Assembly: GCA_016934825.1 (NCBI GenBank)
Contig: JAFGSB010000126.1
Coordinates: 675-64,674 of the forward strand
Reading direction: 5' to 3'
Source: Candidatus Zhuqueibacterota bacterium
GTDB lineage: Bacteria > Zhuqueibacterota > Zhuqueibacteria > Residuimicrobiales > Krinioviventaceae
Length of the DNA: 64,000 nt
Position 1 is the stretch's first letter, and each line of letters begins with the position of its first letter. The translations under genes were made by a program, and so were the position numbers. This document shows, one piece after another, positions 12,253 to 53,353 of this stretch. Under the pieces are notes generated by a model. It had not been told where the DNA came from. It worked only from the letters and a program-made list of their open reading frames with translations, and searched no databases.

Positions 12253-13173
12253 TTAACATATATTATTCACTATCTCCTTAATACCACTAAGATTATCATC
12301 GATAGCGGCAATATGTCCACTAATATTAAATGTTTCATTAGGAGAAATATCATTCTTTAAAATCTCCCAGGCAAAATTCATTTCCAATTCATGTTTAAAA
12401 TCATCATTCAAACCAAAGCCAAGATTGTTATTCTGGCAATACAGGCCGGCAATGTGCACTATCGCGACCAAATGCCTTTCATAAATAGACGTCTCGGGCT
12501 TGTGGTGCCGGGATACCACATGAGCAATTTCACCAAAATAATTCCATTGTTCAAGCAGCCAGGGACCGAAATCCGTATGACTGATCCCTAATATTTCATT
12601 TTCCGCTTCCTCAAAATTCATATTGGTACTTTCAACCTTTTTTACCACCTTTAAAAATTCATTGGGGAAATTATGGATAAGTATAACTTCACCAATATCA
12701 TGTAACAATCCGGCAAGGTAAGCGCGTTCATGGTCTTTATATTTCAGACTTTTAGCCAATAATTTACTGACAACTGCTGTGGCAAAAGAATACTCCCAAA
12801 AGGACTTGAACAACTTTGAATTTTGGTTGTTGGAGAAATTATTGACCAAAGTTGTTGTCAGGACAACATTTTTTATCTCCTTTGACCCCAAATAAACAAG
12901 AGCCTCCCTAAGTGATTCAATTCTTCTCCCGAGTCCGAAATAGACCGAATTAACCACACGTACCATTTTGGCCGTCAGTACCTGATCCATCATAATCAGA
13001 TCAATGAGATCATCGATACTAAACTCGGGATCTTTTGTCTTGTCCAATATTTTTATTGCAACTGGAGGCAAAACGGGCAAATTTTCAATTTTACTCAAAA
13101 AGGCCAAAAGTTTTTTATCCTTCGGGTTTTGGGTATTTTGAGTATCATCCTTTTTTATGACATTTGCGATCAA
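12253..13173 (-). CDS. HDOD-domain signalling protein
   Basis: Contains LPVLPPVAIKIL...DLIDLIMMDQVLTAKMVRVVNSVYFG and GLLHDIGEVIL, the hallmark of HDOD. Last gene of the pilus operon, 29 nt after the preceding stop. Confidence 0.8.
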   Translation of the reverse strand: MIANVIKKDDTQNTQNPKDKKLLAFLSKIENLPVLPPVAIKILDKTKDPEFSIDDLIDLIMMDQVLTAKMVRVVNSVYFGLGRRIESLREALVYLGSKEIKNVVLTTTLVNNFSNNQNSKLFKSFWEYSFATAVVSKLLAKSLKYKDHERAYLAGLLHDIGEVILIHNFPNEFLKVVKKVESTNMNFEEAENEILGISHTDFGPWLLEQWNYFGEIAHVVSRHHKPETSIYERHLVAIVHIAGLYCQNNNLGFGLNDDFKHELEMNFAWEILKNDISPNETFNISGHIAAIDDNLSGIKEIVNNIC

Positions 13174-14503: not shown

Positions 14504-15100
14504 TTAAATACCTAACAGATTTTTGGGTGTTATCCTCATGATATACATAAATCTGGAATATTCACCCTTGAACGGTTCTTTACTTTCAATCTGCAAAGAT
14601 ACCCGGATCATTCGTATCTTGCGTAAAGAGTCAGAAACAACCGGGGTGGAAAATTCAAATCCCTGCTGGTTGTAATATTGCATTCGTAAACGTGTCAATC
14701 CAAGACTGTACCCACTGTGATTTTCTCCGTTTACCTTGCGGACAAATTTTTTATCCCTCGGATTTTCCGTGCTCGTATCCGGCGTGACAAAAATATATTC
14801 TATATGTGTTGAATCGGAAATATGGACTCCCAAAACAGCTTTGGGATTTTTATTATATGAAAATCTTATCTGCGAAGTATCAGCAAGGGTGATGGCCCTT
14901 TCAGGGCGCGTCAGACAATGGCCTATTTTACGCATTTCCCAATTCATTATATCGGCTGCTAATTTCAGATTCTCTTCCGTATGCAAATCCTGTTGAATGA
15001 AAATTGAACTGGCCTTCACACTGGTATCGACCTGTACGACAATTAATATAATCATACCGGCAATGATGAAGGAGATTATAACATCTAACATACTGTTCAT
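14504..15100 (-). CDS. pilin-like protein with non-canonical N-terminus
   Basis: 198 aa. The hydrophobic helix MNSMLDVIISFIIAGMIILIVV starts at residue ~4. No G|F/MxxxE motif. An in-frame stop 7 codons upstream of the ATG rules out a longer leader. Confidence 0.5.
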   Translation of the reverse strand: MNSMLDVIISFIIAGMIILIVVQVDTSVKASSIFIQQDLHTEENLKLAADIMNWEMRKIGHCLTRPERAITLADTSQIRFSYNKNPKAVLGVHISDSTHIEYIFVTPDTSTENPRDKKFVRKVNGENHSGYSLGLTRLRMQYYNQQGFEFSTPVVSDSLRKIRMIRVSLQIESKEPFKGEYSRFMYIMRITPKNLLGI

Positions 15101-15645: not shown

Positions 15646-18516
15646 TTAAGGTTCTTCTAAGGACAAATAAATGAATATTGTTTTTGTTGCGCTGCCATTA
15701 GGACTTTCAAGGTTAAAAGTAATTTCAGCCGTACCGGCTTTATCGTCAATCGGATCCAAATTATTCAATAAATAAGTTGAATAAAATGTGCTGCCCAAAC
15801 CGTATTTTTCCGGACTCGGCATAAATGTTGTTTGCGCCAGCCTGCCCTTGGAGCTGGATGCGGTCAGGGTTGAACCCTGCGAAACCGGGTTTCCGTTTAT
15901 GTCATAAACGCGAATACTAATTACAGCAGCCTCACCCAGTTTCAGGGAAGTTTTATCCGCGTTCACCCGGAAGCCCTGTATTTGACCGTCCGGCCAGGGA
16001 TTCGTATTCAACGGACCGCTGAATATCACGCCGCCGTAGGTATACACCATAACGGTCGAGTCGGAGTGGTCTGATTGGTGCAGGTACTGATCACAACCCT
16101 GGGTTTTGGCCAGAACAAAAGCCATTCCATCATTCTCGCCATAATTGCCAAGACTGTTAAGTACTTCCGAGCCTTCAAAATCAGGTACTTGAATATCCAG
16201 CATTAAATCGGGAGCATTGGGATTTGGTATACGGTGCGGCGCCAACACAAACGGGTCCGAAGGATTTAAATAAGGCTTTGGATTTGCGGACCTTAATATG
16301 GCCGTACCGACGCCATTAGCATCCGTTTTTACATCGGTTGTGATGATACCGGCTGTTGATGTTAAATAAACTGTTGTACCCTCCTCCACAGGATTATTAT
16401 ACCTGTCACCAACATATACTGTTACTTCATAGTCTTTGACATTGTGCCACCCATCCCGATTTATGTAATCAAAAGCAATTGTCATATGGCTTTCCACATG
16501 ATTTTTATCATTCGGATCGATCCACATATACGGCGGACCCGAACGGATCACAACATTCGCGATTCTGGCTGTAATATCATATTCTCCAACAACTTCGGCC
16601 ATAATTCGCACTGTTCCGGATCGGGTACCCGCTTTTAAAGTCGCTTTGGCCTCACCATCCACAGTTTTGATCGGGACTGATTCGGATAACGAACCATTTT
16701 TTGCAGGGAATATGGATTCACCGCCTCCGGGGCCGTTTAACAATGTAAATTTGACCGAAACATCATTCGAAACCGGTGTACCGGTTTGTGACAGCACACG
16801 TGCCGTCAGAGTTGTTTGTTCAAGATTTCCCGTTTCCTTGACCCAGATGAAATTCGGTTCGGCAGTAAGCAAGATCGTTGTCGGCTTTTCGGATGCAAAA
16901 ATAATCGGCACCGTTTTATAAAGCCCGCCATAAAAAACATTTACGTATGCAATACCGGCCTGCGATTCCGAAATTAATTCAGCCTTGGCGGTTCCCAAAA
17001 CATCCGTTGTTGCCTGATTGGGGATAGAACCTAAATTCGAATTAAAATTAACAACGGCATAGGGAATTACATCTTTTGTCGTCGTTAATTTGAGCTGAAC
17101 AGTTATAACAGATGAAGCAATGCCGTCGGCCTGTATTGAATCCGGATTCGCGGATACCTGCATGGAAACCCCAAGCAGATCAATCGGTAAAGTTGTTGTC
17201 ATCGTACCAAATGTCGCCGTTATCACATCCCGGGCATCAACAGAGTCTGCATCGGAAATATAATCAACTTCAGCCTGACCGTTTTCATCGGTTATGGCGA
17301 CACTGTCCACCACTCCGTAATTCGCCTTGAATCGGAGTTTTGTGTCTTTAACCGGATTTTGCTGGTCGTCTAAAAGTGTTGCGGTTAACTTTACTGCCGA
17401 AATACCATTCCGGATAACCACCTGGTTACCGGTCAATGAAAATAAAGTCTGTCCCGCCGATTCTACAAAAGATATTTGCGCAGTATCGGACACATTATAA
17501 AAACTGGATATAACCTGAACATTGGGATTTGCCGAACTGCCGCTCACCAGATCGGCCAATGCGTCACCTTTCTCATTTGTTACCGCGGTTGCGGTTATAG
17601 AACCGTCCGAGGTTATAAAATTTACATTTGCACCCACTATCGGATTATTTTTATGAGTAGTCAATCTTGCTGTCATCACTAATTTGCTTTTTCCGTCGGC
17701 GGACAATTGCGCAATTTCGGGAAACAAATTCAGTTTGGGAGTCACATAGCTCAATAAGATTTGTTTACTTTCAAAGGTCCCATAATCAATAAATATCGTA
17801 TCATCGATTGCCCTGGTCAAAGAAACCAGATCAACGGCGGCTACCCCCCTCTCAGATGTTTTTAATTGGCCAGGAACCGTATTATATATTGCTCTTAAAA
17901 ATATATCGGCCCCGGGTACCGCCTTCTTACTTACGGTTTCTTTAATAACAACTTCAAGTTTGGCGGTATTAATTCCATCAGCCGGTATATCCTTTTGATC
18001 AATTACAGCCGTTAAGGTCACTCCGATAAATTTAATATCGATTGTAGCGGTATCTGAGGCATCTCCGGACACTTTTTTCAACTTTTCTGTCTGAGAAAAA
18101 TTTTTCACTTTCAGCACAACTTTATGTTTATCCGGAATTTTTTTGTTCAACGAACTGCTGTCCTGAATGGTCGCCGTAACGGTTACATCAAGGTCCACAT
18201 CACTTGCTACACTGGTCAAAATTGCAGTCGTTTCACCCAAAACATTAGAAATCGAATAAGATGTTATAGAACCATGGTTTGTTGTAAAATTGACTCTTAC
18301 TCCTTGGGCCGGATATCCGCTTGTATCATAAACTACGGCAATAATTGAGGCGGTAGAAATTCCATCGGCAATTAACCAGGGTTCCTGATCATCAATCTCA
18401 ATTTTTTCAATCCTGTTTGGTCCTACAACTTTATCATCATCTTTACCACATTGTATCATAAAGAAAAAGCCCAACACCATGAAAATTGAAAAAATTAATT
18501 TATGATTTATCTTCAT
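15646..18516 (-). CDS. large lipoprotein with tandem bacterial Ig-like (Big_1, invasin/intimin-type) domains
   Basis: 956 aa with a lipobox (FFFMIQ|CGKDDD). At least 6 repeats follow the Big_1 pattern ADG.s...v.a.v.D..g.P..g..V.F....G.i......Td..G.A.a.l.s. Confidence 0.75.
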   Translation of the reverse strand: MKINHKLIFSIFMVLGFFFMIQCGKDDDKVVGPNRIEKIEIDDQEPWLIADGISTASIIAVVYDTSGYPAQGVRVNFTTNHGSITSYSISNVLGETTAILTSVASDVDLDVTVTATIQDSSSLNKKIPDKHKVVLKVKNFSQTEKLKKVSGDASDTATIDIKFIGVTLTAVIDQKDIPADGINTAKLEVVIKETVSKKAVPGADIFLRAIYNTVPGQLKTSERGVAAVDLVSLTRAIDDTIFIDYGTFESKQILLSYVTPKLNLFPEIAQLSADGKSKLVMTARLTTHKNNPIVGANVNFITSDGSITATAVTNEKGDALADLVSGSSANPNVQVISSFYNVSDTAQISFVESAGQTLFSLTGNQVVIRNGISAVKLTATLLDDQQNPVKDTKLRFKANYGVVDSVAITDENGQAEVDYISDADSVDARDVITATFGTMTTTLPIDLLGVSMQVSANPDSIQADGIASSVITVQLKLTTTKDVIPYAVVNFNSNLGSIPNQATTDVLGTAKAELISESQAGIAYVNVFYGGLYKTVPIIFASEKPTTILLTAEPNFIWVKETGNLEQTTLTARVLSQTGTPVSNDVSVKFTLLNGPGGGESIFPAKNGSLSESVPIKTVDGEAKATLKAGTRSGTVRIMAEVVGEYDITARIANVVIRSGPPYMWIDPNDKNHVESHMTIAFDYINRDGWHNVKDYEVTVYVGDRYNNPVEEGTTVYLTSTAGIITTDVKTDANGVGTAILRSANPKPYLNPSDPFVLAPHRIPNPNAPDLMLDIQVPDFEGSEVLNSLGNYGENDGMAFVLAKTQGCDQYLHQSDHSDSTVMVYTYGGVIFSGPLNTNPWPDGQIQGFRVNADKTSLKLGEAAVISIRVYDINGNPVSQGSTLTASSSKGRLAQTTFMPSPEKYGLGSTFYSTYLLNNLDPIDDKAGTAEITFNLESPNGSATKTIFIYLSLEEP

Positions 18517-18555: not shown

Positions 18556-20145
18556 TCAGACACCGGTTTTTATCTTGATAACGATTAAATCACCCGGTCT
18601 AACGTCCCCTTTAATTTTATGTGCAATTGTCCGGTCATATTTTGTCTGTTGAATCAAAACATAACCAACCTGAATGGGTTTTTTGTTACCGTTTAACCTG
18701 ACAGTAGAAAACCTTTTTCCGAATAATTTCTGAGTATTAAAATTCTGTTTCCACTTGATTAATACAATATTATCTTCAACAGATATTACATTTCCGAGAT
18801 AATAGTTAGCGGATTCGATCGTTTTTTCCGGATTCATAACCGGGGTGGCCTGGGCTCTGGGTTGTGGAACATAGGTTTTTTTCTCGATAGCCTTGTTAAC
18901 CGGCTTTGGCTTTGGCGTATATGTGTTACTCACCTCGCGTTTTGGAATGCCGGGTTCAATAGTTCCTTTTTTGAATTTTTCTAATTTGAGTTCCGCATCA
19001 GGATCCCATAAATTTTGATTATTGGGATAATTTTTTCTATCAAAAACATCGGGTAAAATTGATGCTTTAAGAATTATGATCAATTCCTTTTGTGACGTTT
19101 CAGTCCGGTTATACCCGAACAGATAACAAAGACCAAAAAACCAGGGGGGTAAATCTTTTAAAAGAGGCAGTCCTTTTCGTAAATTGGTTTTTTCGGTATT
19201 ATACAATCCCGCAATGAGTGTCTCTTCACCGTCAAATAATTGTATATAAGAATTGGCTTCGGATTTGTTAATAATCGTACTGACGACATCGGGTGTCGCC
19301 TGACTACGCTCAACATGGGCTTTAAGTAAAATGGCTTCGTTTTTATCATCATCCATAATAATATAGGGTGTAACCTGCAATATAGTACCGGTACTGAAAA
19401 ATCTGTCAATCAGGTTACCGGCAAAATCTCTAGTTTTAATTGAAAAATCCTGACCAACCTGAATTTTGCCTTCATTGCCTTCTGTTACCACGACCTGGGG
19501 CTGGGCAAGTACCTTGCCGATATTTTTCGAATCGAATATACTGAGCAATGCGCGAATATCAACATCAAATGTTTTGCTGGGAATCTTGACCGACAGATCA
19601 AAAAAGCTTTCATTGACAGAGAGCGCTCCCATTTGATCGGATGACATTGTGACTTTACCATTGTAAAAAGAACTCCAGTCGAGACCAATTTCGGAAATTG
19701 CTTTCCTGTCGCCTTCGAAAAAAATTGTCTCAATTTTAATTTCCTTGCTGCCCGGTCTCAGATTAATTTCATCCGGAATATTAGTGGAACCGTTAGAAAT
19801 GGTTGACGTGTTTGTCGGATAAACGATCTGAAAAAAATGTTCTTTTTCTTCATACCACAGACCTCGGGCGCTTAATATTATTTGCAAAGCTTTTTCCCAT
19901 TGTAAAGCATCTACATCTATACCTACAGAGCCTTTTTGTTTTGTCGGATCAAAAATAGGCTTGTTGGCGAACTGTATAGAGTATTCACTCAGAATATTCA
20001 TGGCGTCCTGAAATTCTAATTGACCGTTAATAGAACAGAGCTCTTCTGGTGGAGTATACTCGCGCGGAAACCGTTCCTGGGAAAAACAGGGCAAGGAAAT
20101 AAAAATAATGAGCAAATAAAGAATTGTAATTTTTAATTTTTTCAT
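18556..20145 (-). CDS. pilQ: secretin (PilQ/GspD family) with 165-aa C-terminal extension
   Basis: Signal peptide followed by a secretin core (VLAQPQVVVTEGNEGKIQVGQD, LPLLKDLPPWFFGLCYLFGYNRTETSQKELIIILKASI). A Pro/Lys-rich linker and an extra beta-rich domain follow. Confidence 0.8.
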   Translation of the reverse strand: MKKLKITILYLLIIFISLPCFSQERFPREYTPPEELCSINGQLEFQDAMNILSEYSIQFANKPIFDPTKQKGSVGIDVDALQWEKALQIILSARGLWYEEKEHFFQIVYPTNTSTISNGSTNIPDEINLRPGSKEIKIETIFFEGDRKAISEIGLDWSSFYNGKVTMSSDQMGALSVNESFFDLSVKIPSKTFDVDIRALLSIFDSKNIGKVLAQPQVVVTEGNEGKIQVGQDFSIKTRDFAGNLIDRFFSTGTILQVTPYIIMDDDKNEAILLKAHVERSQATPDVVSTIINKSEANSYIQLFDGEETLIAGLYNTEKTNLRKGLPLLKDLPPWFFGLCYLFGYNRTETSQKELIIILKASILPDVFDRKNYPNNQNLWDPDAELKLEKFKKGTIEPGIPKREVSNTYTPKPKPVNKAIEKKTYVPQPRAQATPVMNPEKTIESANYYLGNVISVEDNIVLIKWKQNFNTQKLFGKRFSTVRLNGNKKPIQVGYVLIQQTKYDRTIAHKIKGDVRPGDLIVIKIKTGV

Positions 20146-20155
20146 AACGTACCAC

Positions 20156-21151
20156 TTACTTTTTAGTTAATTTCAATTCAAGGGATCCACCACCGCCGGC
20201 TGAAGAGAGGTTGATACCTACTTTGCCGGCTTTCACATCAATATATCCAACTTTTCCTCCCAAAACCCTGTCCCCTATTCTTAATTTTTTTATTTTCCCT
20301 GATTTATCCCGAATCATCACACTGTTTGGAGTAATCGCTAAAATTTCCGTCGCCGGCGTTACTTCCGGTAAGCCCTCCGAATTCCTTTGTATAACACGTT
20401 CATTACTAAACGGATTTCTGGTAGGGGCATCTCCCAATGCGGATGATGCGAGATTTTTCTGATAATCGGATGAGGCTTTATTTTGTTTACTTAATACGAC
20501 CCGATCAATTGCTTCCGCTACCGGATTTTGAATAATATTTGATACATTGGGGGGCTGACCGGTTTCCCTGACAATCTGTTCAATATCGAGTCCTTTTTCT
20601 TTTTGGAATCCCCAAACATTGACAGCAAAAGTCATCTCTCCTCTTTTACGTTCTGCATTCTCTTTTTCTTCCGCTCCTATCCGGTCAATATTAATTGATC
20701 TGATATCATAAAAAATCGGGCCGTTCTCAAGAAACCAGGAAAGTTCATAAAAATCCTCAAAATTTCCTTCCCCGCTTATTTGGTATGTACTTCTTTGAAA
20801 GTCTTTAAATTTTTGTTGATCAACTAATTCCTGGTTTAGTTCAATCATGGAACTTGTACGGTTCAGTTCACGCAGCATATAATCAAATGTTTCTCCCGGT
20901 GATTCATTCCCGGCCAATGCCCCTAATTTACCCAGGCTCAGATCTTTAAGGTGGGTATAACTTTCAATGAGTTCATGCCTGGTAATCTGCATGCTTTTCA
21001 GATCATTGAGTCGATCTGTTTTTCTTTTGTTTTCCTGTTGTAATTCGGCATACTTTTTGGCCTGCACACCATAGATGTAATAGAATCCTCCGGCCATAAC
21101 GAGCAGCCAAAATATTCCGATAAACAATGTATTTCTGATTTTATAAGGCAT
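20156..21151 (-). CDS. PilO-like bitopic protein with PilP-like C-terminal domain
   Basis: N-terminal TM helix plus coiled coil (PilO-like). The C-terminal segment ITPNSVMIRDKSGKIKKLRIGDRVLGGKVGYIDVKAGKVGINL resembles the PilP beta-sandwich motif. Its ATG lies 1 nt after the upstream stop. Confidence 0.55.
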   Translation of the reverse strand: MPYKIRNTLFIGIFWLLVMAGGFYYIYGVQAKKYAELQQENKRKTDRLNDLKSMQITRHELIESYTHLKDLSLGKLGALAGNESPGETFDYMLRELNRTSSMIELNQELVDQQKFKDFQRSTYQISGEGNFEDFYELSWFLENGPIFYDIRSINIDRIGAEEKENAERKRGEMTFAVNVWGFQKEKGLDIEQIVRETGQPPNVSNIIQNPVAEAIDRVVLSKQNKASSDYQKNLASSALGDAPTRNPFSNERVIQRNSEGLPEVTPATEILAITPNSVMIRDKSGKIKKLRIGDRVLGGKVGYIDVKAGKVGINLSSAGGGGSLELKLTKK

Positions 21152-21152
21152 A

Positions 21153-22730
21153 TCAATAACTATCTTTAGTTTCGACTTGAATAACTTTTACCTGACAATC
21201 AATTGTCACATTAATAAATTCCTGACTCTCTTCGGCCGTGTAGATCGCCGAAATCAAACTAAAATCCATAAATCTTTCCAGTTGTGCAACCTGTCCGCGG
21301 TCTTTCATTTTTAGTTCAACAATCATATGATCTATTGCCGGGGTTTGAATTTTAGTTATGCTAAACGGGCCGATTTCGTTATATGCTTTGGAAAACTTTT
21401 CCAGGGTCGGCGTCCATCTTATCGTTTCTTTCGTCATCGAATCGATCAAAGCCGTGCTTTTTTTCAGCTCATTAATCTCATTCCTTAGACTATCTACCTG
21501 ATGTGCGACCAATTTCAGATCTTTTAATTCATTATCAAGATATGCTGATTGAATACCGGCCTTTTTAATATGAATATTATTACTGATACTTTTTGTCGTG
21601 ATAAAAAATGCACTCAGAAACAGGATGATCAATAACAATAAACCGTGCCAGCTCACTTTATAGATTGAGGTTTTGTCTCTTATTCTTGAAGGAAGAAAAT
21701 TTTGATCATACGGTACCGTATTTTTTTCGTCCAGTATTTTTAAAGCCATTGCAATAGCAATACCATACGATTCCATTTGAGAATCATATTTATCCAGGTT
21801 GACACCATGGGCGGCCCTGGACGCATCATAACGGATGATATTTAATTCCGGTAAACGTTTTTTGAAATATACATCAGAATCCAAACGCGCATTTTCACCG
21901 ACCAATATAATATTATTGAGAGATGAAATATTTCCCGAATCCAGTTCAAATAATATTTTCGAAAAAGCCGTATCGCACACCGTCTCGGAATCCGCGCCCT
22001 CATGTATTGTCGGCAATACGGATTTTATTTCCTTCCCCTGCATAAAAAAGATTTTTGTGAATCCTTCGGCAAATATTATGACCGCGGAGTTACTGTCTTT
22101 ATCAAACTCATAGTTTTGCAGTAATTCATGAGCCAGCGTAAATTCAATCGTATCGATAAGAGAAAGCCGCACGGGATTTGTTCTGGTTATGGTGCAGGCT
22201 TCATCGAATAACGCGGAAAGAACCAGCGGATCATCGTGAACCACAGATAACAAACTGCCGTCGGAGTGTTTTAAATAACCGACATTCTCATATTTGGTGT
22301 CACCATTATTACTTTCATAAAAATCGGACCAGATGGCCTTTTTTATCTTCTTTTTATTGGTTTCCTGAACATCGGTAATATTTTTGTATAATGTAAAAGA
22401 GTTCGAAAGGTTAAAACCAACCCGCGTGCCTTTTGGAATCATCCGGTTTATAATATCTATCACTATATCGATATTGGTTTTACCTTCCGGCGGCAGTTCT
22501 TTATCAGTATCAATAAAACCTGAATTTTCAATATCCAGACCGAAACCCTGATCTTCGATTGCAATGGCCTTTTCATTTTTTTTGTTTTCCAGGGATTCCC
22601 GGTTTTCCAATTGCTCAACAAGTTGAAATGTTTCCAATTCTTCAACTTCAATTTCTTTACCATTTGCAGCAAGTAAAGCGGCCTTGAGTTGATAATCATC
22701 GATAAATATGCCTAATGCTCTTTTTTTCAT
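21153..22730 (-). CDS. PilM-like actin-fold ATPase fused to PilN-like TM/coiled-coil module
   Basis: 525 aa with a PilM-like N-terminus (ALGIFIDDYQLKAALL...), one TM helix (WHGLLLLIILFLSAFFITT) and a coiled-coil periplasmic tail. Confidence 0.6.
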   Translation of the reverse strand: MKKRALGIFIDDYQLKAALLAANGKEIEVEELETFQLVEQLENRESLENKKNEKAIAIEDQGFGLDIENSGFIDTDKELPPEGKTNIDIVIDIINRMIPKGTRVGFNLSNSFTLYKNITDVQETNKKKIKKAIWSDFYESNNGDTKYENVGYLKHSDGSLLSVVHDDPLVLSALFDEACTITRTNPVRLSLIDTIEFTLAHELLQNYEFDKDSNSAVIIFAEGFTKIFFMQGKEIKSVLPTIHEGADSETVCDTAFSKILFELDSGNISSLNNIILVGENARLDSDVYFKKRLPELNIIRYDASRAAHGVNLDKYDSQMESYGIAIAMALKILDEKNTVPYDQNFLPSRIRDKTSIYKVSWHGLLLLIILFLSAFFITTKSISNNIHIKKAGIQSAYLDNELKDLKLVAHQVDSLRNEINELKKSTALIDSMTKETIRWTPTLEKFSKAYNEIGPFSITKIQTPAIDHMIVELKMKDRGQVAQLERFMDFSLISAIYTAEESQEFINVTIDCQVKVIQVETKDSY

Positions 22731-23947: not shown

Positions 23948-24919
23948 TTATTTCATATTGTAATCAGTTACATAGCGTTCTTCCAATTCTCTGGCTTTGT
24001 GATAATTTATTATTTCCAGAGGATCAATGGAAAAATGCATGTCGTTAAAATATCGATTTTCAATTTTTGTTACGATTGAACGAATTCTGGTAATATTATT
24101 TTGAATACTTTCCGCTCTTTCAAGATAAGATTGTCCTTGTTCCTTTAACAAAAGTTCCGCGTTCACCGAAATAATTGTCAATGGATTATTCATTTCATGC
24201 TGTAATGTTCTTAAAATAGTATCGACAAATATTTGTTTTTCTTGAAATAATTTTTTATTGCACGAATCTACCAGGTCGGTATTTTTTTTGTTTATTTCTT
24301 TATTCAACCAATAAAGTTCACTATTTTGATTATGTAATGTCATAGCCAGAAATGATGATATAAAATAAACCAGGAAAAACAAACAGACATAAGACAGCAG
24401 GGTAACAGAATTTTTCTGAGTGAATACAATCAACTCTCTGGAAAATTCAACACTGAACAGTGTTATGTCCTTATATTCAGTCAGAAATAATACCATAAAC
24501 AAACAGACAACACTTAGAAAACTGGCCCATAATCCAGGGCCCTTACCGGCGGTGATACTGGATGTTAAAATGGGAATTAAATACAGCCAAATCAACGGGC
24601 TCGCCGGACCATCGGTCAAATAAATGACCATTGAAAAAATCAAAATATCCAGTAAATTATGTAAAAGAATATACAGCATCTTGAACTTGAAAGTATTCAG
24701 CAAAAAACTGTATATTATGTTCAGCAGCATGATAGTAACTAAAGTATAAATAAAATTATTTTGAGGAAAATTCTTTTGTTTTATGGCCATTTGTATTATA
24801 CCAACGGACAAAAAGCTGATTGTGGAAAACCAGCGTACATAATTCCACCATTGAAGCGCATTGGTAAAATTCTTGTTATTCATGGTGTCAACAACCGGAT
24901 TAATTTTATTTTTTCGCAA
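23948..24919 (-). CDS. membrane histidine-kinase-like protein with DHp (HisKA) domain but no catalytic ATP-binding domain
   Basis: About 6 TM helices, a coiled coil and an H-box LQHEMNNPLTIISVNAELL. The protein ends ~70 aa later without N/G1/G2 boxes. pilT starts 3 nt after its stop, so no room remains for a catalytic domain. Start uncertain (TTG 24919 or ATG 24883). Confidence 0.6.
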   Translation of the reverse strand: MRKNKINPVVDTMNNKNFTNALQWWNYVRWFSTISFLSVGIIQMAIKQKNFPQNNFIYTLVTIMLLNIIYSFLLNTFKFKMLYILLHNLLDILIFSMVIYLTDGPASPLIWLYLIPILTSSITAGKGPGLWASFLSVVCLFMVLFLTEYKDITLFSVEFSRELIVFTQKNSVTLLSYVCLFFLVYFISSFLAMTLHNQNSELYWLNKEINKKNTDLVDSCNKKLFQEKQIFVDTILRTLQHEMNNPLTIISVNAELLLKEQGQSYLERAESIQNNITRIRSIVTKIENRYFNDMHFSIDPLEIINYHKARELEERYVTDYNMK

Positions 24920-24985: not shown

Positions 24986-25858
24986 TCAATTTAGCCTGAC
25001 TTCTTCATTCATTCGTGCGATACGTTCACAGGTTACCATAAATTTTTTAGTCATACTCAATATGGTGTTCACTGCAAAACGGAACGCAAAATTTTTGTTT
25101 TCCTGCAAATACTTTGCTATTTCATTTCTATTGATTACTAATAATTCAAATTCTTCTTCCGATTTTAATACCAGCAAAAATTTAGTCTGACCGGATAAAA
25201 ATACGGACGTTTCACCAATGGCATCTCCGGCTTTATAGTAACCGATTATACTGTTCTGATACCAGCAGGCCATACTTCCATGAGTTATGATGACCAACTC
25301 TTTGGTCACATCCATAACATGATTATCGCCCACCGCAATTTTTTTCCGCTCACCTAAAGCCATTAACTCTTTAATATTTTTATCGGGTATATTGGCAAAA
25401 ATATTAAAATTAAAATGTAAATCACTTTCAAAATTTTCTTTACTCATTTGGGTTGCTATAGTCGCAGATTCCGGCTTTTTATGCTTTGAAGTGGACTCCC
25501 GGTTAAAAAATTTATTTATATTGTCAACCAAATTCTTTGCTAAACCGGGTTTAGTAACAAATTCATTAGCCCCCGCTTTTATCGCCTTTTGAGAAAAATT
25601 TTGTCCGCTAAAACCTGTGAATGCTATTATATAAGTATTGGATGATTTAGATCGTAAATTACTGATAATATCAAGTCCATTCATTCTACCGGGTAAAACA
25701 AGGTCTATAAGCGCCAGATCAAAATTTTTGTCACCGCTTTTTGCCTGAGCATCGTCCCCATCAGCTGCACATACCACTTCATAACCTTCCATTCGCAGCA
25801 GTTCGGCTGATGTTTCCCGTAACTCCTTTTCATCATCGACAATTAAAATATTATACAT
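24986..25858 (-). CDS. response regulator: receiver + cyclic-nucleotide-binding-like domain
   Basis: MYNILIVDDE...LALIDLVLPG...IIAFTG...FVTKP receiver. The C-terminal beta-roll is cNMP-like (GDAIGETSVF...). ATG at 25858 is preceded by GAGGT. The longer track start overlaps pilB. Confidence 0.7.
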   Translation of the reverse strand: MYNILIVDDEKELRETSAELLRMEGYEVVCAADGDDAQAKSGDKNFDLALIDLVLPGRMNGLDIISNLRSKSSNTYIIAFTGFSGQNFSQKAIKAGANEFVTKPGLAKNLVDNINKFFNRESTSKHKKPESATIATQMSKENFESDLHFNFNIFANIPDKNIKELMALGERKKIAVGDNHVMDVTKELVIITHGSMACWYQNSIIGYYKAGDAIGETSVFLSGQTKFLLVLKSEEEFELLVINRNEIAKYLQENKNFAFRFAVNTILSMTKKFMVTCERIARMNEEVRLN

Positions 25859-25878
25859 ATTTACCTCATAATATAATT

Positions 25879-27663
25879 TTATTCCATTGTTGCAGCAGCA
25901 ACTTCTTCCATGCACGCCCGGCCTTCAATAACCCTCCTTCGTGCGGATGCCCGCAAGGTTATCATACCATATTTCAAGGCACTTTCCCTAATCGAATCTT
26001 CATCCAGCTCACCGGACGCCGACAAAATTAATTTTCTTATTTCCGGCGTAAAGGGTAATACTTCATGGATCGCAACACGACCCGCAAAGCCTTTTTTACA
26101 ACTGTCACATCCTACAGGTTTATAAAAAGTGTGTGTCGTTATTTCCTGTTCCGTAAATCCAAGTGATAGCGCATAATCTTTATCAATATTGGTAATTTGC
26201 TTTTTACATTTATTGCATAGCGTTCGCATTAATCGCTGCGCGACAACAAGGTTAATGGCGTAGGCGATTAAAAAAGGTTCAATATCCATTTTAAACAATC
26301 TGGAAATAACACTCACAGCATCGTTTGTGTGTAATGTAGAAAAAGTTAAATGCCCTGTATTGGCCAGTTTAATTCCGATTTCAGCAGTTTTTGTATCCCG
26401 AATCTCACCTACCATAACGATATCGGGGTCGTGTCGTAAAATCGAACGAATTGCCTGGTCAAAATTCATTTTATTACTGATCTTTAGCTGACGCGCCCCT
26501 TTTATATTATATTCAACCGGATCCTCAACCGTTAACACATTCAATTCGGGTGACATAACCTGGTGCAGTGCCGCAACCAGAGTGGTACTTTTACCGCTAC
26601 CGGTCGGTCCGGTCAATATGACCATTCCCTGGGGTTTCTTTATGGCCTTGAGAAATTCTTCTTTGGCAAAACCATCAAATCCAAGTTTTGCCAGATCCGT
26701 AATTACCTTCCTGTCATCAAGAACACGAATAACAACACTTTCATATTTCCGGGTAAAGGCGCTCGAAACGATAGGCAAAATGGAAACCCTGAATCGAATA
26801 AGATAATGATCAACTTCACGCTGAATAAAACCGTCCTGGGCCACATCCCATTCAAAACGGTCAACGTTACGGGTTCTATCCTTAACAACCGCCAGAAAAG
26901 CTTCCGGTTTTACGCCATCCTGTTTATGCCATAAAGCCAAACGTCCATCGACCCGAAAATGAATTTCGGTAATGTTACCCTCTTTGGGTATGATATGAAT
27001 ATCACTGGCGCCCTTATGCACAGCTTCAATTAAACATCCCTCGAAAAGATTAACCAGCAGGCTTTTATTAATAGCGGCGGTAAGTTCATCTTCATCAAGA
27101 CCCTTTTCTTCATCTTCATCGTCGATATAAGATAATTCGTCGGTGACCTCTTTTAAATTTTCCAGAAATTGATTCTCATTGGGCAGCGCCTTGTGTAATA
27201 TTTCTTCAACATCTTCCAGCTTGCCGTAGGATAGTTCAAATCTTTTGAAACCTGCCTGCCTGATCACCCGGTCAATTTCACGATCTGTCGGATCGGGCGT
27301 GATAAATATTGTTATTTCATTATTCTTTTCACTATATCCGAAGGGGAGAATTTTTTTATCAACAAAAGAATCCTGACTCGATTGCGGCAACGATTCATAC
27401 ATGTCACGTATAAATTTCAGCCATCCTTCGGAAACCGATGTGCCGTCTATTTTAATCTCCCGGAAAGCATATACTCTGCAAAACGCCTGATAAACTTTGT
27501 GCCGGTCATAACCCAGCTCTTTGATTAAAACATTTTCCAGACTTTGTTTTTTATCGGATTTCGCAACAATTTCATACGCTTTATTCAGGTCGGTTTTTGT
27601 AAACAGACCTTCATTTGTCAGCATTTCAACAACGGTATTTGGTATGTGTGAATTTACAATCAT
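25879..27663 (-). CDS. pilB: PilB/GspE-family assembly ATPase
   Basis: Walker A GPTGSGKSTTL, VGEIRD, TGHLTFSTLHT, and a tetracysteine motif CNKC...CDSC. Confidence 0.9.
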   Translation of the reverse strand: MIVNSHIPNTVVEMLTNEGLFTKTDLNKAYEIVAKSDKKQSLENVLIKELGYDRHKVYQAFCRVYAFREIKIDGTSVSEGWLKFIRDMYESLPQSSQDSFVDKKILPFGYSEKNNEITIFITPDPTDREIDRVIRQAGFKRFELSYGKLEDVEEILHKALPNENQFLENLKEVTDELSYIDDEDEEKGLDEDELTAAINKSLLVNLFEGCLIEAVHKGASDIHIIPKEGNITEIHFRVDGRLALWHKQDGVKPEAFLAVVKDRTRNVDRFEWDVAQDGFIQREVDHYLIRFRVSILPIVSSAFTRKYESVVIRVLDDRKVITDLAKLGFDGFAKEEFLKAIKKPQGMVILTGPTGSGKSTTLVAALHQVMSPELNVLTVEDPVEYNIKGARQLKISNKMNFDQAIRSILRHDPDIVMVGEIRDTKTAEIGIKLANTGHLTFSTLHTNDAVSVISRLFKMDIEPFLIAYAINLVVAQRLMRTLCNKCKKQITNIDKDYALSLGFTEQEITTHTFYKPVGCDSCKKGFAGRVAIHEVLPFTPEIRKLILSASGELDEDSIRESALKYGMITLRASARRRVIEGRACMEEVAAATME

Positions 27664-27675
27664 AACTTATATTCC

Positions 27676-29022
27676 CTACATTCCCATTCCAGGCATTTTA
27701 GGTGAAAATACTGCGGTTTCCGATGATACAACTGTCAACAAAGTCATGACAAGCATGATGATCAAAGCAACGAAAACCTGTATCCAATCGACAATTGCCT
27801 GCATTTTGTATTTAGATTCTTTTTCATAATACCGCGCTATCTGCAAACTTACCTTTTTTAACGTACCGGATTCGGCGCCGGTATTAAAACGAGTTAGCGC
27901 ATTTTCTGTAAATATATCCGCCTGTTTGAGCGATTCGACAAATCCTTTTCCTTCCCGTACCATCATCGGTATGGTCACTTCCTTGATCCGTTTTTCCATA
28001 TATTTGTTACGGCACGCTTCGGCGGCAGTCCGTATGACCTCGATATTTTCACCCGAGCCGCTGTACATGGAATTGAATACACGGCAAAAAATTTCAATTG
28101 ACGTCTTGTGTAATATCGGCCCGATGATCGGCATTTTTATTGAAAACTTTCCAACAATAATCTGCCCCTTTTTTGTTAAAGCAAGCCGGAACAAAATAAG
28201 CGGCGGAACAAGCAATATTAATACAATCCAGATAATATTCCCTGTCAGGAAATGACTTAAATCCAGACTGGCCTGGGTCATTGGTGGTAATTCTGCGCCA
28301 AAGCTGGCAAACATTTCAGCCGTTTCCGGGAAGATATAACCGATATAAAAAATAACAGCTCCCAATAATACAAACATTGTAATCGAAGGCATTAATAATG
28401 CGCTGCGAATACTCTTTTTAAATTCATGGACCCTTTCCAGGAATATGGCCGTATTCTCATATACCTCGGCCATATTACCGCTCTTGGAAGCCACGCCCAG
28501 CATTTTCGCGGGAAATTTTCCAAGGAAATTGGCCTGTTTGTTAAAGACCTCTTCCCCGTCTTTACCATCTTTTAAATCATTCAGAATTTCTTTAATGATT
28601 TTTTTCATTGATTTATTTGAAATGTCGGTTTCAAGCAAAGTCAATATTTCATCAAAAGGGAGTTTTTCGCGCAGTAAATCCGCGGATAATCTTATAAAAG
28701 TAATTACATCACCCTGCGGGGGCTTCATCCGGAAATCAATTAAACTTTTTTCAACATGTACATCGTCAAATCCCATTCGCCGGAGAGCAAGTTCCACTTC
28801 TTCTTTTGAATAGGCTTCCTGTTCACCCCGTATCAATTGACCGGCCTGTTTACGTACTTTGTACAAATAGACAGACTTTTTTTGTATGGAAGAAAGTGTA
28901 AAACCCTTCTGGCGTGAGAGCAAAGCAATTCTGGATTTTGCTTCGTTTTTATTTTTTACCTCAATATAGCCAGTAATTCTTTTTTGTTGCGGGGTTAAAC
29001 CTGTATAACGAAATTCTGCCAT
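27676..29022 (-). CDS. pilC: PilC/GspF-family platform protein
   Basis: Two GspF-type repeats with 3 TM segments. The start MAEFRYTG at 29022 is preceded by caaggaagaaag. The track extension to 29082 reads through a terminator hairpin. Confidence 0.85.
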   Translation of the reverse strand: MAEFRYTGLTPQQKRITGYIEVKNKNEAKSRIALLSRQKGFTLSSIQKKSVYLYKVRKQAGQLIRGEQEAYSKEEVELALRRMGFDDVHVEKSLIDFRMKPPQGDVITFIRLSADLLREKLPFDEILTLLETDISNKSMKKIIKEILNDLKDGKDGEEVFNKQANFLGKFPAKMLGVASKSGNMAEVYENTAIFLERVHEFKKSIRSALLMPSITMFVLLGAVIFYIGYIFPETAEMFASFGAELPPMTQASLDLSHFLTGNIIWIVLILLVPPLILFRLALTKKGQIIVGKFSIKMPIIGPILHKTSIEIFCRVFNSMYSGSGENIEVIRTAAEACRNKYMEKRIKEVTIPMMVREGKGFVESLKQADIFTENALTRFNTGAESGTLKKVSLQIARYYEKESKYKMQAIVDWIQVFVALIIMLVMTLLTVVSSETAVFSPKMPGMGM

Positions 29023-29050
29023 CTTTCTTCCTTGAATTAAAAAACTGATT

Positions 29051-29080
29051 AAAAAAAGGGCCCAAAAAAATGCTGGGCCC
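29051..29080 (-). terminator. intrinsic terminator/attenuator between the pilin-like gene and pilC
   Basis: Minus strand reads GGGCCCA-gcattttt-TGGGCCC followed by TTTTTTT, a 7-bp GC stem plus T7 run. It sits 170 nt after the pilin stop and 28 nt before the pilC ATG. Confidence 0.6.
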
Positions 29081-29250
29081 ATGTTTACTCTAGAACATAC
29101 CGTGGTTACCTTGACGTATGGAACTTTTGTCTAAACCAGGTTCAGTTATACCTGCAATATACAAGTAAGTACAATTTGTAAAATGATACTAATCATTCAG
29201 CCCAACTTGCTTATTCAAAGACAATAATGTGTAAATTATTGGTCAATCGA

Positions 29251-29679
29251 TTATGCTCCAGCAGCTACTTTGGTTATTGCAGTTGTAGTAATACTGTTCG
29301 GTCCAATAGTCATCTGTACCTGACATACCTGACCATCTTTGTCCTTGTAAGAACCAACGCCTTGTAATGTAACGGCATCGCCCGAGCCCGCGGTGGAAAT
29401 AGTGAAAGTTCCATTTTCGTTTGTGTAAGATGTAGCACCAATTGCAACCGGTGTCATGTGATGCATTCCCAGACCATCAAATTGATTACCGCCGCCGCCC
29501 ATTCCGGTGGGTTTTACATAATATTGCTGCGCACGAGCTGACATGTTCATTAGATCATTAATTACGGCTTCCTGATTCGAAGCTGCAGCCGATGTACCAA
29601 ATGTTTGTATACCGACCACTACTGCGATACCAACAATGATAACGCTTAAAACGATGAGTAAAAGTTGCTGTTGACCCAT
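29251..29679 (-). CDS. major pilin-like protein with non-canonical N-terminus
   Basis: 142 aa, MGQQQLLLIVLSVIIVGIAVVVGIQTF, then a small Gly/Thr-rich globular part. Strong RBS (aaaggag). An in-frame TAA 5 codons upstream fixes the start. First gene of the pilus operon and followed by a terminator. Confidence 0.6.
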   Translation of the reverse strand: MGQQQLLLIVLSVIIVGIAVVVGIQTFGTSAAASNQEAVINDLMNMSARAQQYYVKPTGMGGGGNQFDGLGMHHMTPVAIGATSYTNENGTFTISTAGSGDAVTLQGVGSYKDKDGQVCQVQMTIGPNSITTTAITKVAAGA

Positions 29680-29757: not shown

Positions 29758-29772
29758 TCAAACATTATGCCA
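29758..29772 (-). promoter_or_regulatory. weak sigma54-like -24/-12 element upstream of the pilin-like gene
   Basis: Minus strand TGGCAT-aatgt-TTGA, ~78 nt upstream of the ATG. GG spacing is correct, but the -12 element is GA rather than GC. Confidence 0.25.
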
Positions 29773-51973: not shown

Positions 51974-53353
51974 TTATTTTGCAGTTTTAGTTCGTCCGTC
52001 AATCCGGGGTAATTCGATACCGAGCTGCTTAATTTTTCGAAACAACGTGCTCTTGTGAATGCCCAGTTCACGTGCGGCGGCCAGTCGATTATATTGATTT
52101 CTTTTCAGTGCATCGATGATGGTCTGTGCTTCCACTGATTTCAGTCTGGCATTGATTATATTTTTTTTCTGCTCACTCAGATGCGGGCGCAGGTTATCGG
52201 GCAGGCAATGAGGTTCAATCTGATTTTCCTGACAGAGGATAAAAGCATGTTCGATAATGTTTTCCAATTCCCGTATATTGCCCGGATAATCATGCGACAT
52301 CAGGATATCCAGCGCTGTTGGTGAGATCCCGGATATGGATTTGTTTTTTAATTTGTTGAGTTTATTGATAAAATGATTCACCAGAATCGGAATATCATTT
52401 TTGCGATCTCTTAAGGGCGGCAGGTCAATACGAATAACATTGATACGGTAGAACAGATCCATACGGAAAGTCCCTTTTTGCACCAATGATTCCAGGTCTT
52501 TATTGGATGCCGTAATTACGCGTACATTTGTTTTGACGGGTTTGGTCCCTCCCAAAGGTGTAAAAGTACGTTCCTGCAGGACACGCAGAAGCCGGACCTG
52601 AAACGCAGCACTGACATCGCCGATTTCATCCAACAGGATCGTACCGCCTTCCGCTAAAGCAAAGTGGCCCGGTTTGTCTTTTGTTGCATTTGTGAAAGCG
52701 CCGGCTTTATAACCAAAAAGTTCCGATTCTAGCAGAGTGTCCGGCAGGGCGCCGCAATTGATTGCAATAAATGGCTTTTTTTGCCGATTACTTGAATCAT
52801 GAATGGCGCGGGCGATCAGCTCTTTGCCTGTACCGGTTTCACCCTGAATCAGAACAGTGCTGTCGCTTTCCGCAATTTTCGGCAAAAGCTGAATGATTTT
52901 TCCCATGGACTGGCTTTTACTAACAATATCCCCCATTTGATAACGTGAATCCAATTCCCTGCGTAGCTCTTCGATAAGACTCATATCTCTGAACGTTTCA
53001 ACTCCGCCGATCACTTTGCCATTTTCGTCTTTGAGCAGAGATGTGCAAACCGTAACAGGAATGCTTTTTTTTTCGCTGTTCACAATATAAGTAGCGGTAT
53101 CCACATAAGAGACACCTTGCTGCATCGTTCTGCGCAAGGCACAGTCCGTTTCACACATATTGGAACGGAAAACTTCACAACAAAACTTGCCGATTGCTTC
53201 TTTACGAGTGATACCCGTAATTTTTTCTGCGGCGCGATTAAAGGATGTAATCCGCCATTGATGATCCACCGTAAAAACGCCGTCGGAAATACTTTCCAGA
53301 ATGACCTTTGTCATATCTGTTGATAAAGGGTAATGTTGTGTTTTCCGGCTCAT
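51974..53353 (-). CDS. sigma54-dependent transcriptional activator (PAS + AAA+ + Fis-type HTH)
   Basis: PAS (ILESISDGVFTVD), Walker A GETGTGKE, the sigma54-contact loop as GAFTNA, ESELFGY, and a C-terminal HTH (AAARELGIHKSTLFRKIKQLGI). Confidence 0.9.
   Translation of the reverse strand: MSRKTQHYPLSTDMTKVILESISDGVFTVDHQWRITSFNRAAEKITGITRKEAIGKFCCEVFRSNMCETDCALRRTMQQGVSYVDTATYIVNSEKKSIPVTVCTSLLKDENGKVIGGVETFRDMSLIEELRRELDSRYQMGDIVSKSQSMGKIIQLLPKIAESDSTVLIQGETGTGKELIARAIHDSSNRQKKPFIAINCGALPDTLLESELFGYKAGAFTNATKDKPGHFALAEGGTILLDEIGDVSAAFQVRLLRVLQERTFTPLGGTKPVKTNVRVITASNKDLESLVQKGTFRMDLFYRINVIRIDLPPLRDRKNDIPILVNHFINKLNKLKNKSISGISPTALDILMSHDYPGNIRELENIIEHAFILCQENQIEPHCLPDNLRPHLSEQKKNIINARLKSVEAQTIIDALKRNQYNRLAAARELGIHKSTLFRKIKQLGIELPRIDGRTKTAK

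Follow-up and report, generated by a model that had tools for sequence, protein, structure and literature searches.

Pilin-like proteins that start without a leader in a type IVa-like pilus gene cluster of a Candidatus Zhuqueibacterota bacterium

We analysed a stretch of 64,000 nucleotides (nt) from a Candidatus Zhuqueibacterota bacterium (assembly GCA_016934825.1, contig JAFGSB010000126.1, positions 675 to 64,674), called the window throughout, in which a single cluster on the minus strand, between about 29.8 kb and 12.2 kb, encodes a predicted type IVa-like pilus together with four pilin-like proteins of 142, 167, 198 and 425 amino acids (aa). That these four proteins truly lack a leader can be regarded as nearly certain, and that they are pilus subunits as highly probable. 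On balance, and with modest confidence, we favour the reading that these pilins are born mature and are assembled without prepilin-peptidase cleavage by a retractile type IVa-like machine.

Starts and conservation of the four proteins

All four open reading frames (ORFs) exist on the minus strand with the N-termini that a first-pass annotation of the window had quoted (Table 1). An in-frame stop upstream of the ATG is 5 codons away in the 142-aa gene, 4 in the 167-aa gene, 7 in the 198-aa gene and 2 in the 425-aa gene, with no intervening ATG, GTG or TTG in any of the four; longer N-termini are therefore excluded in the window. The annotation had given stops 5-7 codons upstream for the 142-aa and 198-aa genes, which is exact, and the other two starts are now pinned as well. 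An AAGGAG sequence is located 7 nt 5' of the ATG of the 142-aa gene at 29679. Only 4-6 residues, with no basic leader among them, precede the hydrophobic alpha-1 helix in all four proteins. The hydrophobic stretch covers L6-F27 in the 142-aa protein, has equivalents in the three others and matches the approximately 20 residues expected of a pilin alpha-1N segment. A class III leader, that is, a short basic peptide ending in Gly(-1), is not found, and the removable part could amount at most to a two-residue Met-Gly.

Related loci were retrieved from species-representative genomes using the 525-aa protein of the cluster as a system-specific marker, which yielded 29 loci. They are carried by KSB1, Calditrichota and unclassified or 'Cytophagia'-labelled metagenome-assembled genomes (MAGs) and, at 21-26% marker identity, also by MAGs of Bacteroidetes, Chitinophagales and Balneolales. 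The whole gene set is present in most of the 29 loci, and an 11-gene module with all three leaderless minor proteins reaches another phylum. In 24 more gene copies from related loci a stop lies 0-8 codons 5' of the start, every major pilin copy begins with MGQQQ, and a Shine-Dalgarno sequence at the right distance is conserved among the copies. The leaderless start holds family-wide across KSB1, Calditrichota and Bacteroidota/Balneolales.

These stops and ribosome-binding site (RBS) positions, in the window and in the 24 other copies, led us to reject a start-codon or annotation artefact, in which the true proteins would begin upstream with ordinary leaders; such an explanation is hardly credible. 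A few database representatives do show apparent N-terminal extensions, for example P0187 (MRKKGLINLGQQQ) and P0203. The called ATG of P0187, however, has no RBS and is located 6 nt 3' of a sigma-54-like -12 element, whereas a TTG with an upstream AAAAAGG stands directly before GQQQ and fits as the start, and P0187 was accordingly rejected as a leader-bearing homologue. The next gene in its locus (L031) is an ordinary ATG-MGQQQ paralogue, and a PilS/PilR pair lies upstream. Ordinary leaders in homologues, which the first-pass annotation had named as the sign of a local start-codon artefact, were not encountered: MGQQQ starts run through the family, and the lone apparent leader, that of P0187, is a very probable TTG miscall.

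The 142-aa protein, the putative major pilin, belongs to a large family. A word-indexed search returned 3,952 homologues of 129-145 aa, and the start MGQQQLLL is found in all but one of the 120 closest homologues listed, the exception being a truncated start call. An exhaustive search gave 1,563 representatives at 50% identity (586 at E <= 1e-10), and in almost all of the best 150 of these 1,563 the alignment begins with the first residue of both proteins. The start M-G-Q-Q-Q is shared by about 134 of 148 representatives at this identity level. Among 134 representatives chosen as MG starts (a few others have Ala2), M1 and G2 are conserved in 134, Q3 in 115, Q4 in 124, Q5 in 133 (with one Glu), G17 in 122, G23 in 117 and F27 in 119. 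The Gln residues reported at positions 3-5 of the putative major subunit recur across the family, and the alignment of homologues proposed by the annotation identifies M1, G2 and Q5 as near-invariant. No charged residue occurs in the first 27 positions of 126 of 132 aligned members.

Pairwise identity reaches 69% over residues 1-27 vs 29% over the globular residues 57-142, and this combination of an invariant N-terminus with a hypervariable globular part fits a surface-exposed polymer subunit. After alpha-1 a loop motif, YYxKPxxxGGGGxSFxG, is conserved, and most members contain 0-1 Cys. Residues 50-70 of the 142-aa protein form the strongly conserved segment AQQYYxKPxxxGGGGxSFxG, with A50, P57, G62 and G63 at 90% or above. 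The loop after alpha-1 is variable in ordinary type IVa pilins. Database members are labelled 'hypothetical protein' or, by the Joint Genome Institute (JGI), 'PilE', and a cluster look-up returned only uncultured MAG and metagenome entries.

Of 19 full-length N-termini of the 167-aa family, 14 have E at position 5, three have D, one has N and one has Q, always with four residues before it; the protein that had been described with Glu at position 5 from Met1 is the 167-aa ORF, and an acidic residue is kept there in 17 of the 19. At residue 2 these 19 N-termini show A, G, N or Q, and the copies of related loci show A, G, H, N, R or S, so that there is no conserved Gly(-1). Members of the 198-aa family start with MN and often have Asp or Glu at position 6, and those of the 425-aa family open with MG[K/R] and carry nothing acidic around position 5. 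The four families have no Gly(-1) motif in common. The description of the four proteins as having 'no leader, no Gly-1' consequently stands for the leader and fails, in the strict sense, for Gly-1, as hardly any member of the major pilin family or the 425-aa family departs from Gly2.

Several observations concern the pilin copies themselves. Two tandem MGQQQ paralogues occur in many loci (L010, L023, L024, L028, L029 and L031); ATA occupies the start position in the second copy of L010, and TTG does so in the first copy of L031. The sole Glu5 variant (MGQQELLL, P0252) is an orphan copy at 143-547 of L033 that adjoins a Y1 transposase gene outside a pilus cluster. Four longer representatives, P0121 (381 aa), P0128 (581 aa), P0151 (376 aa) and P0173 (446 aa), show 3-4 repeated pilin matches, and several of this set begin in a signal-peptide-like or lipoprotein-like manner without MGQQQ. 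They may be gene calls that were fused, or else proteins composed of pilin head domains in tandem.

Evidence for pilus subunits

An AlphaFold2 model of the 142-aa protein, computed from a 132-sequence alignment, has a mean predicted local distance difference test (pLDDT) score of 92.5 and consists of a single helix (residues 2-55) and a 4-5-stranded antiparallel sheet, the lollipop of type IV pilins. The first-pass annotation had asked whether such a fold would be predicted and had considered an unrelated bitopic membrane protein as the alternative outcome; for the major protein the confident model favours the pilin. In a Foldseek search against the PDB, the best and only full-length match of the model was the PAK pilin 1oqw (TM 0.60/0.59 over 139 columns, probability 0.85), at a weak E-value of 0.4. 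A family profile compared with PDB sequences likewise placed pilin alpha-1 helices at the top, first Geobacter PilA (E 0.025-0.1) and then Thermus PilA5 and PilE1, all of them weak matches (E 0.025-1). None of the four proteins matched Pfam N_methyl (PF07963) or TIGR02532, even at E <= 10.

For the three minor proteins, pilin homology is suggested by weaker evidence, namely topology, weak profile hits and conserved synteny. The 167-aa protein was modelled with a long helix (residues 2-56) and a sheet in lollipop topology (pLDDT 76.5), and neither Foldseek of this model nor the family profile against PDB sequences gave an informative PDB match. The 198-aa protein has a weak match to NCBIfam NF007848 (prepilin peptidase-dependent protein, PpdB; E 0.0033) that begins at profile position 14, and its family profile weakly matches the Thermus type IV-like pilin TTHA1219 (E 0.79), with Asp6 placed on Glu5 of TTHA1219. 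The 425-aa protein matches DUF4900 weakly (3.7e-05), below the Pfam cutoff. By analogy with GspK/PilX-type tip subunits, which likewise have no acidic residue near position 5, it is a candidate PilX/GspK-like tip subunit.

The machinery encoded alongside is that of a type IVa pilus, as PilB, PilT, PilC and a PilQ secretin are encoded together, a combination that is conserved in the 29 related loci. It could be argued that the four proteins are not filament subunits at all and instead are bitopic inner-membrane or periplasmic accessory parts (alignment- or stator-like), the true leader-bearing pilins being encoded elsewhere. The silence of N_methyl and TIGR02532 and the Foldseek results, weak for the major protein and uninformative for the 167-aa protein, would suit this explanation, which we nevertheless consider improbable. 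The 142-aa gene is the first of the cluster and has its own promoter-like element, a strong RBS, a terminator and, often, tandem paralogues; the protein combines an invariant N-terminus and a hypervariable globular part with a full-length pilin fold; a canonical prepilin gene is found in none of 30 loci; and known pilin sets show the same composition of one small abundant-type, two small minor and one large minor gene.

Processing of the N-terminus and comparison with known systems

We infer, at somewhat better than even chances, that cleavage by a prepilin peptidase does not take place, because the proteins have no leader to remove and no common Gly(-1), and because the 167-aa family and the major pilin carry an acidic or amide residue at position 5 when counted from Met1. 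To our knowledge, leader removal is the only known role of prepilin cleavage, and we know of no system in which the major and minor pilins do not all carry one cleavage motif. Pfam scans of essentially all window ORFs of at least 110 aa revealed no Peptidase_A24. Pfam confirmed the identity of a PilD probe (A24_N_bact 9e-33, Peptidase_A24 7e-28), and at E <= 10 this probe had no match in the window or in 30 loci (about 0.5 Mb altogether). Neither was a canonical G|FTLIE prepilin found by regular expression in the window and the 30 loci, the only match being an internal segment of PilC.

Under the reading that the pilins are born mature, the locus would encode a retractile type IVa-like pilus composed of PilB, PilT, PilC, the secretin and two lineage-specific inner-membrane proteins, controlled by the PilS-like sensor and the response regulator. 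The 142-aa protein would be the major filament subunit, made from its own transcript off a probable sigma-54 promoter, and the 167-, 198- and 425-aa proteins would serve as minor priming or tip subunits. All of them would insert N-in/C-out like ordinary prepilins, and the platform and PilB would extract and polymerise them with neither prepilin-peptidase cleavage nor N-methylation, because no leader would block N-terminal packing. Position 5 from Met1 would hold the counterpart of Glu5, a polar residue that is Gln in the major pilin and Glu or Asp in members of the 167-aa family. An amide at this position may suit an uncharged (formyl-blocked) N-terminus, or one that differs otherwise from the usual N-methyl-Phe1 amine. 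The invariant Gly2 could allow methionine aminopeptidase to remove Met1, or could permit close packing within the core of the filament.

Several points weigh against this reading. Gly2, invariant in the major pilin and conserved in the 425-aa family, is the very residue that a prepilin peptidase needs at -1, and a gapless register in which Gly17 and Phe27 correspond to Gly14 and Phe24 of Geobacter PilA sets Gly2 at -1. The equivalence of Gln5 and Glu5 finds no support in any structural alignment, and on this point Gly12/17/23 compared with the canonical Gly14/Pro22 and the HMMER alignment to Geobacter PilA give conflicting registers. The absence of a peptidase gene covers the window and loci of roughly 20 kb, and genes for prepilin peptidases frequently lie at other sites and serve more than one system (PMC6668835). 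For the 167-aa protein (Foldseek uninformative, no PDB profile match) and the 425-aa protein (the sub-threshold DUF4900 match only) pilin homology is tentative, and all carriers of the family are uncultured.

The first of these points can also be explained if Met-Gly is a vestigial two-residue class III leader that is cut after Gly2 by an unlinked peptidase, leaving a mature Gln-Gln-Gln-Leu terminus with no acidic residue at +5. Prepilin peptidases recognise their substrates mainly by Gly(-1), and the pattern at residue 2, with Ala as the sole alternative to Gly in the major pilin and MG[K/R] in the 425-aa family, would agree with such a leader. So would the gapless register on Geobacter PilA, the predicted alpha-1 helix of residues 2-55, which would become a 53-residue helix after the cut, and the frequent location of peptidase genes away from their substrates (PMC6668835). 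We consider such a minimal leader unlikely, though a good deal less so than the accessory-protein explanation. The 167- and 198-aa families conserve neither Gly nor Ala at residue 2, where H, N, R, Q, S and D are seen; among the polar positions of the major pilin Gln5 is conserved best, with Glu as its only alternative, which is sensible if counted from Met1; in the 167-aa family Glu or Asp falls precisely at position 5 when Met1 is residue 1; and no A24 gene was found in the window or the 30 loci.

In its widest form, the reading of pilins born mature would mean that phylum-spanning pili of KSB1, Calditrichota and Bacteroidota/Balneolales have dispensed with the class III signal peptide, the dedicated peptidase/N-methylase and the salt bridge between Glu5 and the N-terminal amine, and rely instead on an invariant Gln5 and an unprocessed or Met-excised N-terminus. 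We put this forward tentatively, as a proposal that falls a little short of an even chance. If true, cleavage of a leader would not be an inherent part of how type IV filaments assemble. The class III signal peptide, its cleavage by the prepilin peptidase and Glu5 serve to define type IV pilins, to detect them (PilFind, N_methyl, TIGR02532, MacSyFinder models) and to account for their mechanism, and a large natural family without signal peptide, cleavage and Glu5 would contradict this textbook definition. The 'hypothetical' labels and the under-calling of pili in KSB1, Calditrichota and parts of Bacteroidota can be attributed to the reliance of detection on class III features. The family would further represent a natural experiment in which the parts played by leader cleavage, N-methylation and Glu5 in polymerisation and in the extraction of pilins from the membrane can be assessed and, if the reading holds, a simplified, peptidase-independent pilin scaffold for the study or engineering of type IV filaments. 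According to reference reviews, both the class III signal peptide and the prepilin peptidase are universal (PMC4471445, PMC6668835). No prior description of the motif, of leaderless pilins, or of pili in KSB1, Calditrichota and Bacteroidota was found in the full-text literature.

The closest comparison is with type IVa pilins such as P. aeruginosa PAK PilA (1oqw), Geobacter PilA and Thermus PilA4/PilA5. Shared features are an alpha-1 helix of approximately 54 residues with the first 22 or so hydrophobic, a 4-5-stranded antiparallel sheet, an invariant N-terminus with a variable globular domain, and a gene near pilC/pilB that forms its own transcription unit with a probable sigma-54 promoter and is accompanied by minor-pilin genes. 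Unlike these pilins, the 142-aa protein has no class III signal peptide, its helix begins 5 residues after Met1 and Gln replaces Glu at position 5; its family is missed by N_methyl/TIGR02532, has no disulfide-bonded D-region and carries the conserved loop motif. The minor proteins recall the minor pilins of type IVa pili (T4aP) and the pseudopilins of type II secretion systems (T2SS), such as PilV-W-X, GspI-J-K, E. coli PpdB and TTHA1219, in that three genes stand in a row, two small and one large, and the small proteins are acidic at position 5 or 6 while the large one is not, as in GspK/PilX. They differ in having neither a leader nor a shared Gly(-1), and sequence similarity is marginal.

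The Bacteroidetes 'T2SS' of Cytophaga hutchinsonii and Flavobacterium (CHU_3191-3202) is a type IV filament machine from the same superphylum and also has divergent PilM/N/O/P-like proteins that escape Pfam. Denise et al. reportedly found in 2019 that this system clusters with T4aP. The Cytophaga cluster contains a canonical GspG-type pseudopilin (PF08334) and a Peptidase_A24 gene (PMC5553014), whereas the present module has no GspG-type pseudopilin or A24 gene at the locus and does have PilT. A type II secretion system is likewise set apart by the PilT paralogue and by the absence of any T2SSG (PF08334), GspL or GspM match. Mannose-sensitive haemagglutinin (MSH) pili share the absence of a peptidase gene at the locus, yet their pilins have normal leaders and the peptidase is supplied by another system in the genome (PMC6668835); here the substrates themselves have no leader. 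Tad/Flp pili, with Flp pilins of 50-80 aa, the motif G|xxxxEY and TadA/B/C/Z and TadV, differ from the present system, which has a 142-aa globular pilin, no such motif and PilC/PilB/PilT-type machinery.

The gene cluster and its regulation

Table 1. Features of the pilus gene cluster (positions in the window)
Feature	Position	Strand	Evidence and remarks
Sigma-54-like -24/-12 element TGGCATAATGTTTGA	29758..29772	(-)	93 nt 5' of pilin ATG
Major pilin (putative), 142 aa	29251..29679	(-)	N-terminus MGQQQLLLIVLSVIIVGIAVVVG; MGQQQ, 22-residue hydrophobic stretch, predicted alpha-1 2-55, 4-5-stranded sheet
Intrinsic terminator after pilin gene	29050..29080	(-)	GGGCCCAG-loop-UUGGGCCC, then U7; dG -15.8 kcal/mol, z = -2.9
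PilC/GspF-type platform protein	27676..29022	(-)	Pfam T2SSF 1.9e-26; NCBIfam PilC and GspF far below cutoff
PilB-type assembly ATPase	25879..27663	(-)	Pfam T2SSE 1.2e-100
Response regulator with weak cNMP-binding-like C-terminal domain	24986..25915	(-)	Pfam
PilS-like membrane sensor (6TM_PilS + HisKA)	23948..24919	(-)	Pfam
PilT-type retraction ATPase, 401 aa	22740..23945	(-)	Pfam T2SSE 7.7e-38
System-specific 525-aa protein	21153..22730	(-)	Conserved hydrophobic segment near residue 365
System-specific 331-aa protein	20156..21151	(-)	Co-conserved in all related loci
Secretin (PilQ-like)	18556..20145	(-)	Pfam Secretin 7.3e-26; NCBIfam PilQ/GspD sub-threshold
956-aa probable lipoprotein	15646..18516	(-)	Five Big_1 domains; between secretin and minor pilins
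Minor pilin-like protein, 167 aa	15126..15629	(-)	N-terminus MASSETLLTIGALVLLSIF; M-x-x-x-[E/D/Q/N], then hydrophobic helix; Glu5 from Met1
Minor pilin-like protein, 198 aa, PilW/PpdB-like	14504..15100	(-)	N-terminus MNSMLDVIISFIIAGMIILIVV; MNSMLD, then hydrophobic helix
Large minor pilin-like protein, 425 aa	13203..14480	(-)	N-terminus MGKYSIIMVLGLLISVMF; starts MG[K/R]
HDOD-domain protein	12253..13173	(-)	Pfam HDOD 6.9e-60; cluster end

Major pilin genes are usually separate transcription units, and the perfect intrinsic terminator together with the upstream sigma-54-like element indicates that this is also the case for the 142-aa gene. The 15-mer TGGCATAATGTTTGA is identical in the window and in the five nearest loci (L001-L005), where it lies 93-102 nt 5' of the pilin ATG in flanking DNA that differs, and it is a probable sigma-54 promoter of the pilin gene. 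A similar element, TGGCATTTCATTTGT, is found in L031, where it adjoins the divergently placed PilS/PilR pair, PilR being a sigma-54 activator. An element of the form TGGCAT-N5-TTG[A/T/C] is seen 5' of the pilin genes of the window, L001-L005, L013 and L031. The only sigma-54 activator in the window is encoded at 51974-53353, 22 kb off, and has no receiver domain.

The true start of PilC is probably the ATG at 29022 and not the ATG at 29082 of the ORF list, since an AAGGAAG RBS precedes 29022, the terminator hairpin would fall inside the longer ORF and the shorter protein, of 448 aa, equals the L001 orthologue in length.

The 525- and 331-aa proteins sit at the position expected of PilM/N/O/P. 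A profile of the 525-aa family gave 0 matches in the PDB, and a Pfam scan of all 33 members returned no consistent family. Thirty-two columns of this family are invariant; among them are a G..D motif at the N-terminus and a WHG motif that precedes a hydrophobic segment. From its position and single hydrophobic segment, the protein may be a PilM-PilN/GspL-like alignment protein. For neither protein was a sequence match found in Pfam, NCBIfam or the PDB, and the 331-aa protein is possibly a PilO/PilP analogue.

A compact version of the operon, flanked by housekeeping genes, is found in the distant Bacteroidota locus L023 in the order pilin (two copies), pilC, pilB, 167-like, cNMP-binding, 198-like, 425-like, pilT, 525-like, 331-like and secretin. 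The domain that may bind cyclic nucleotide monophosphates (cNMP) is fused to a receiver in the window (24986-25915) and stands alone at the equivalent operon position in L023 (6625-7125), which hints at cNMP control of the pilus machine. The PilS-like sensor, at 319-323 aa, is too short for an HATPase_c domain, and the same architecture is seen in L001 (14789-15748). The HDOD gene is co-located only in the nearest relatives, L002-L005.

The 956-aa probable lipoprotein has a lipobox-like MIQC|G and Big_1/invasin-type immunoglobulin domains; it may act as an adhesin associated with the pilus or as a partner of the secretin. It is kept in the loci of KSB1/Calditrichota type and absent from those of Bacteroidota/Balneolales type.

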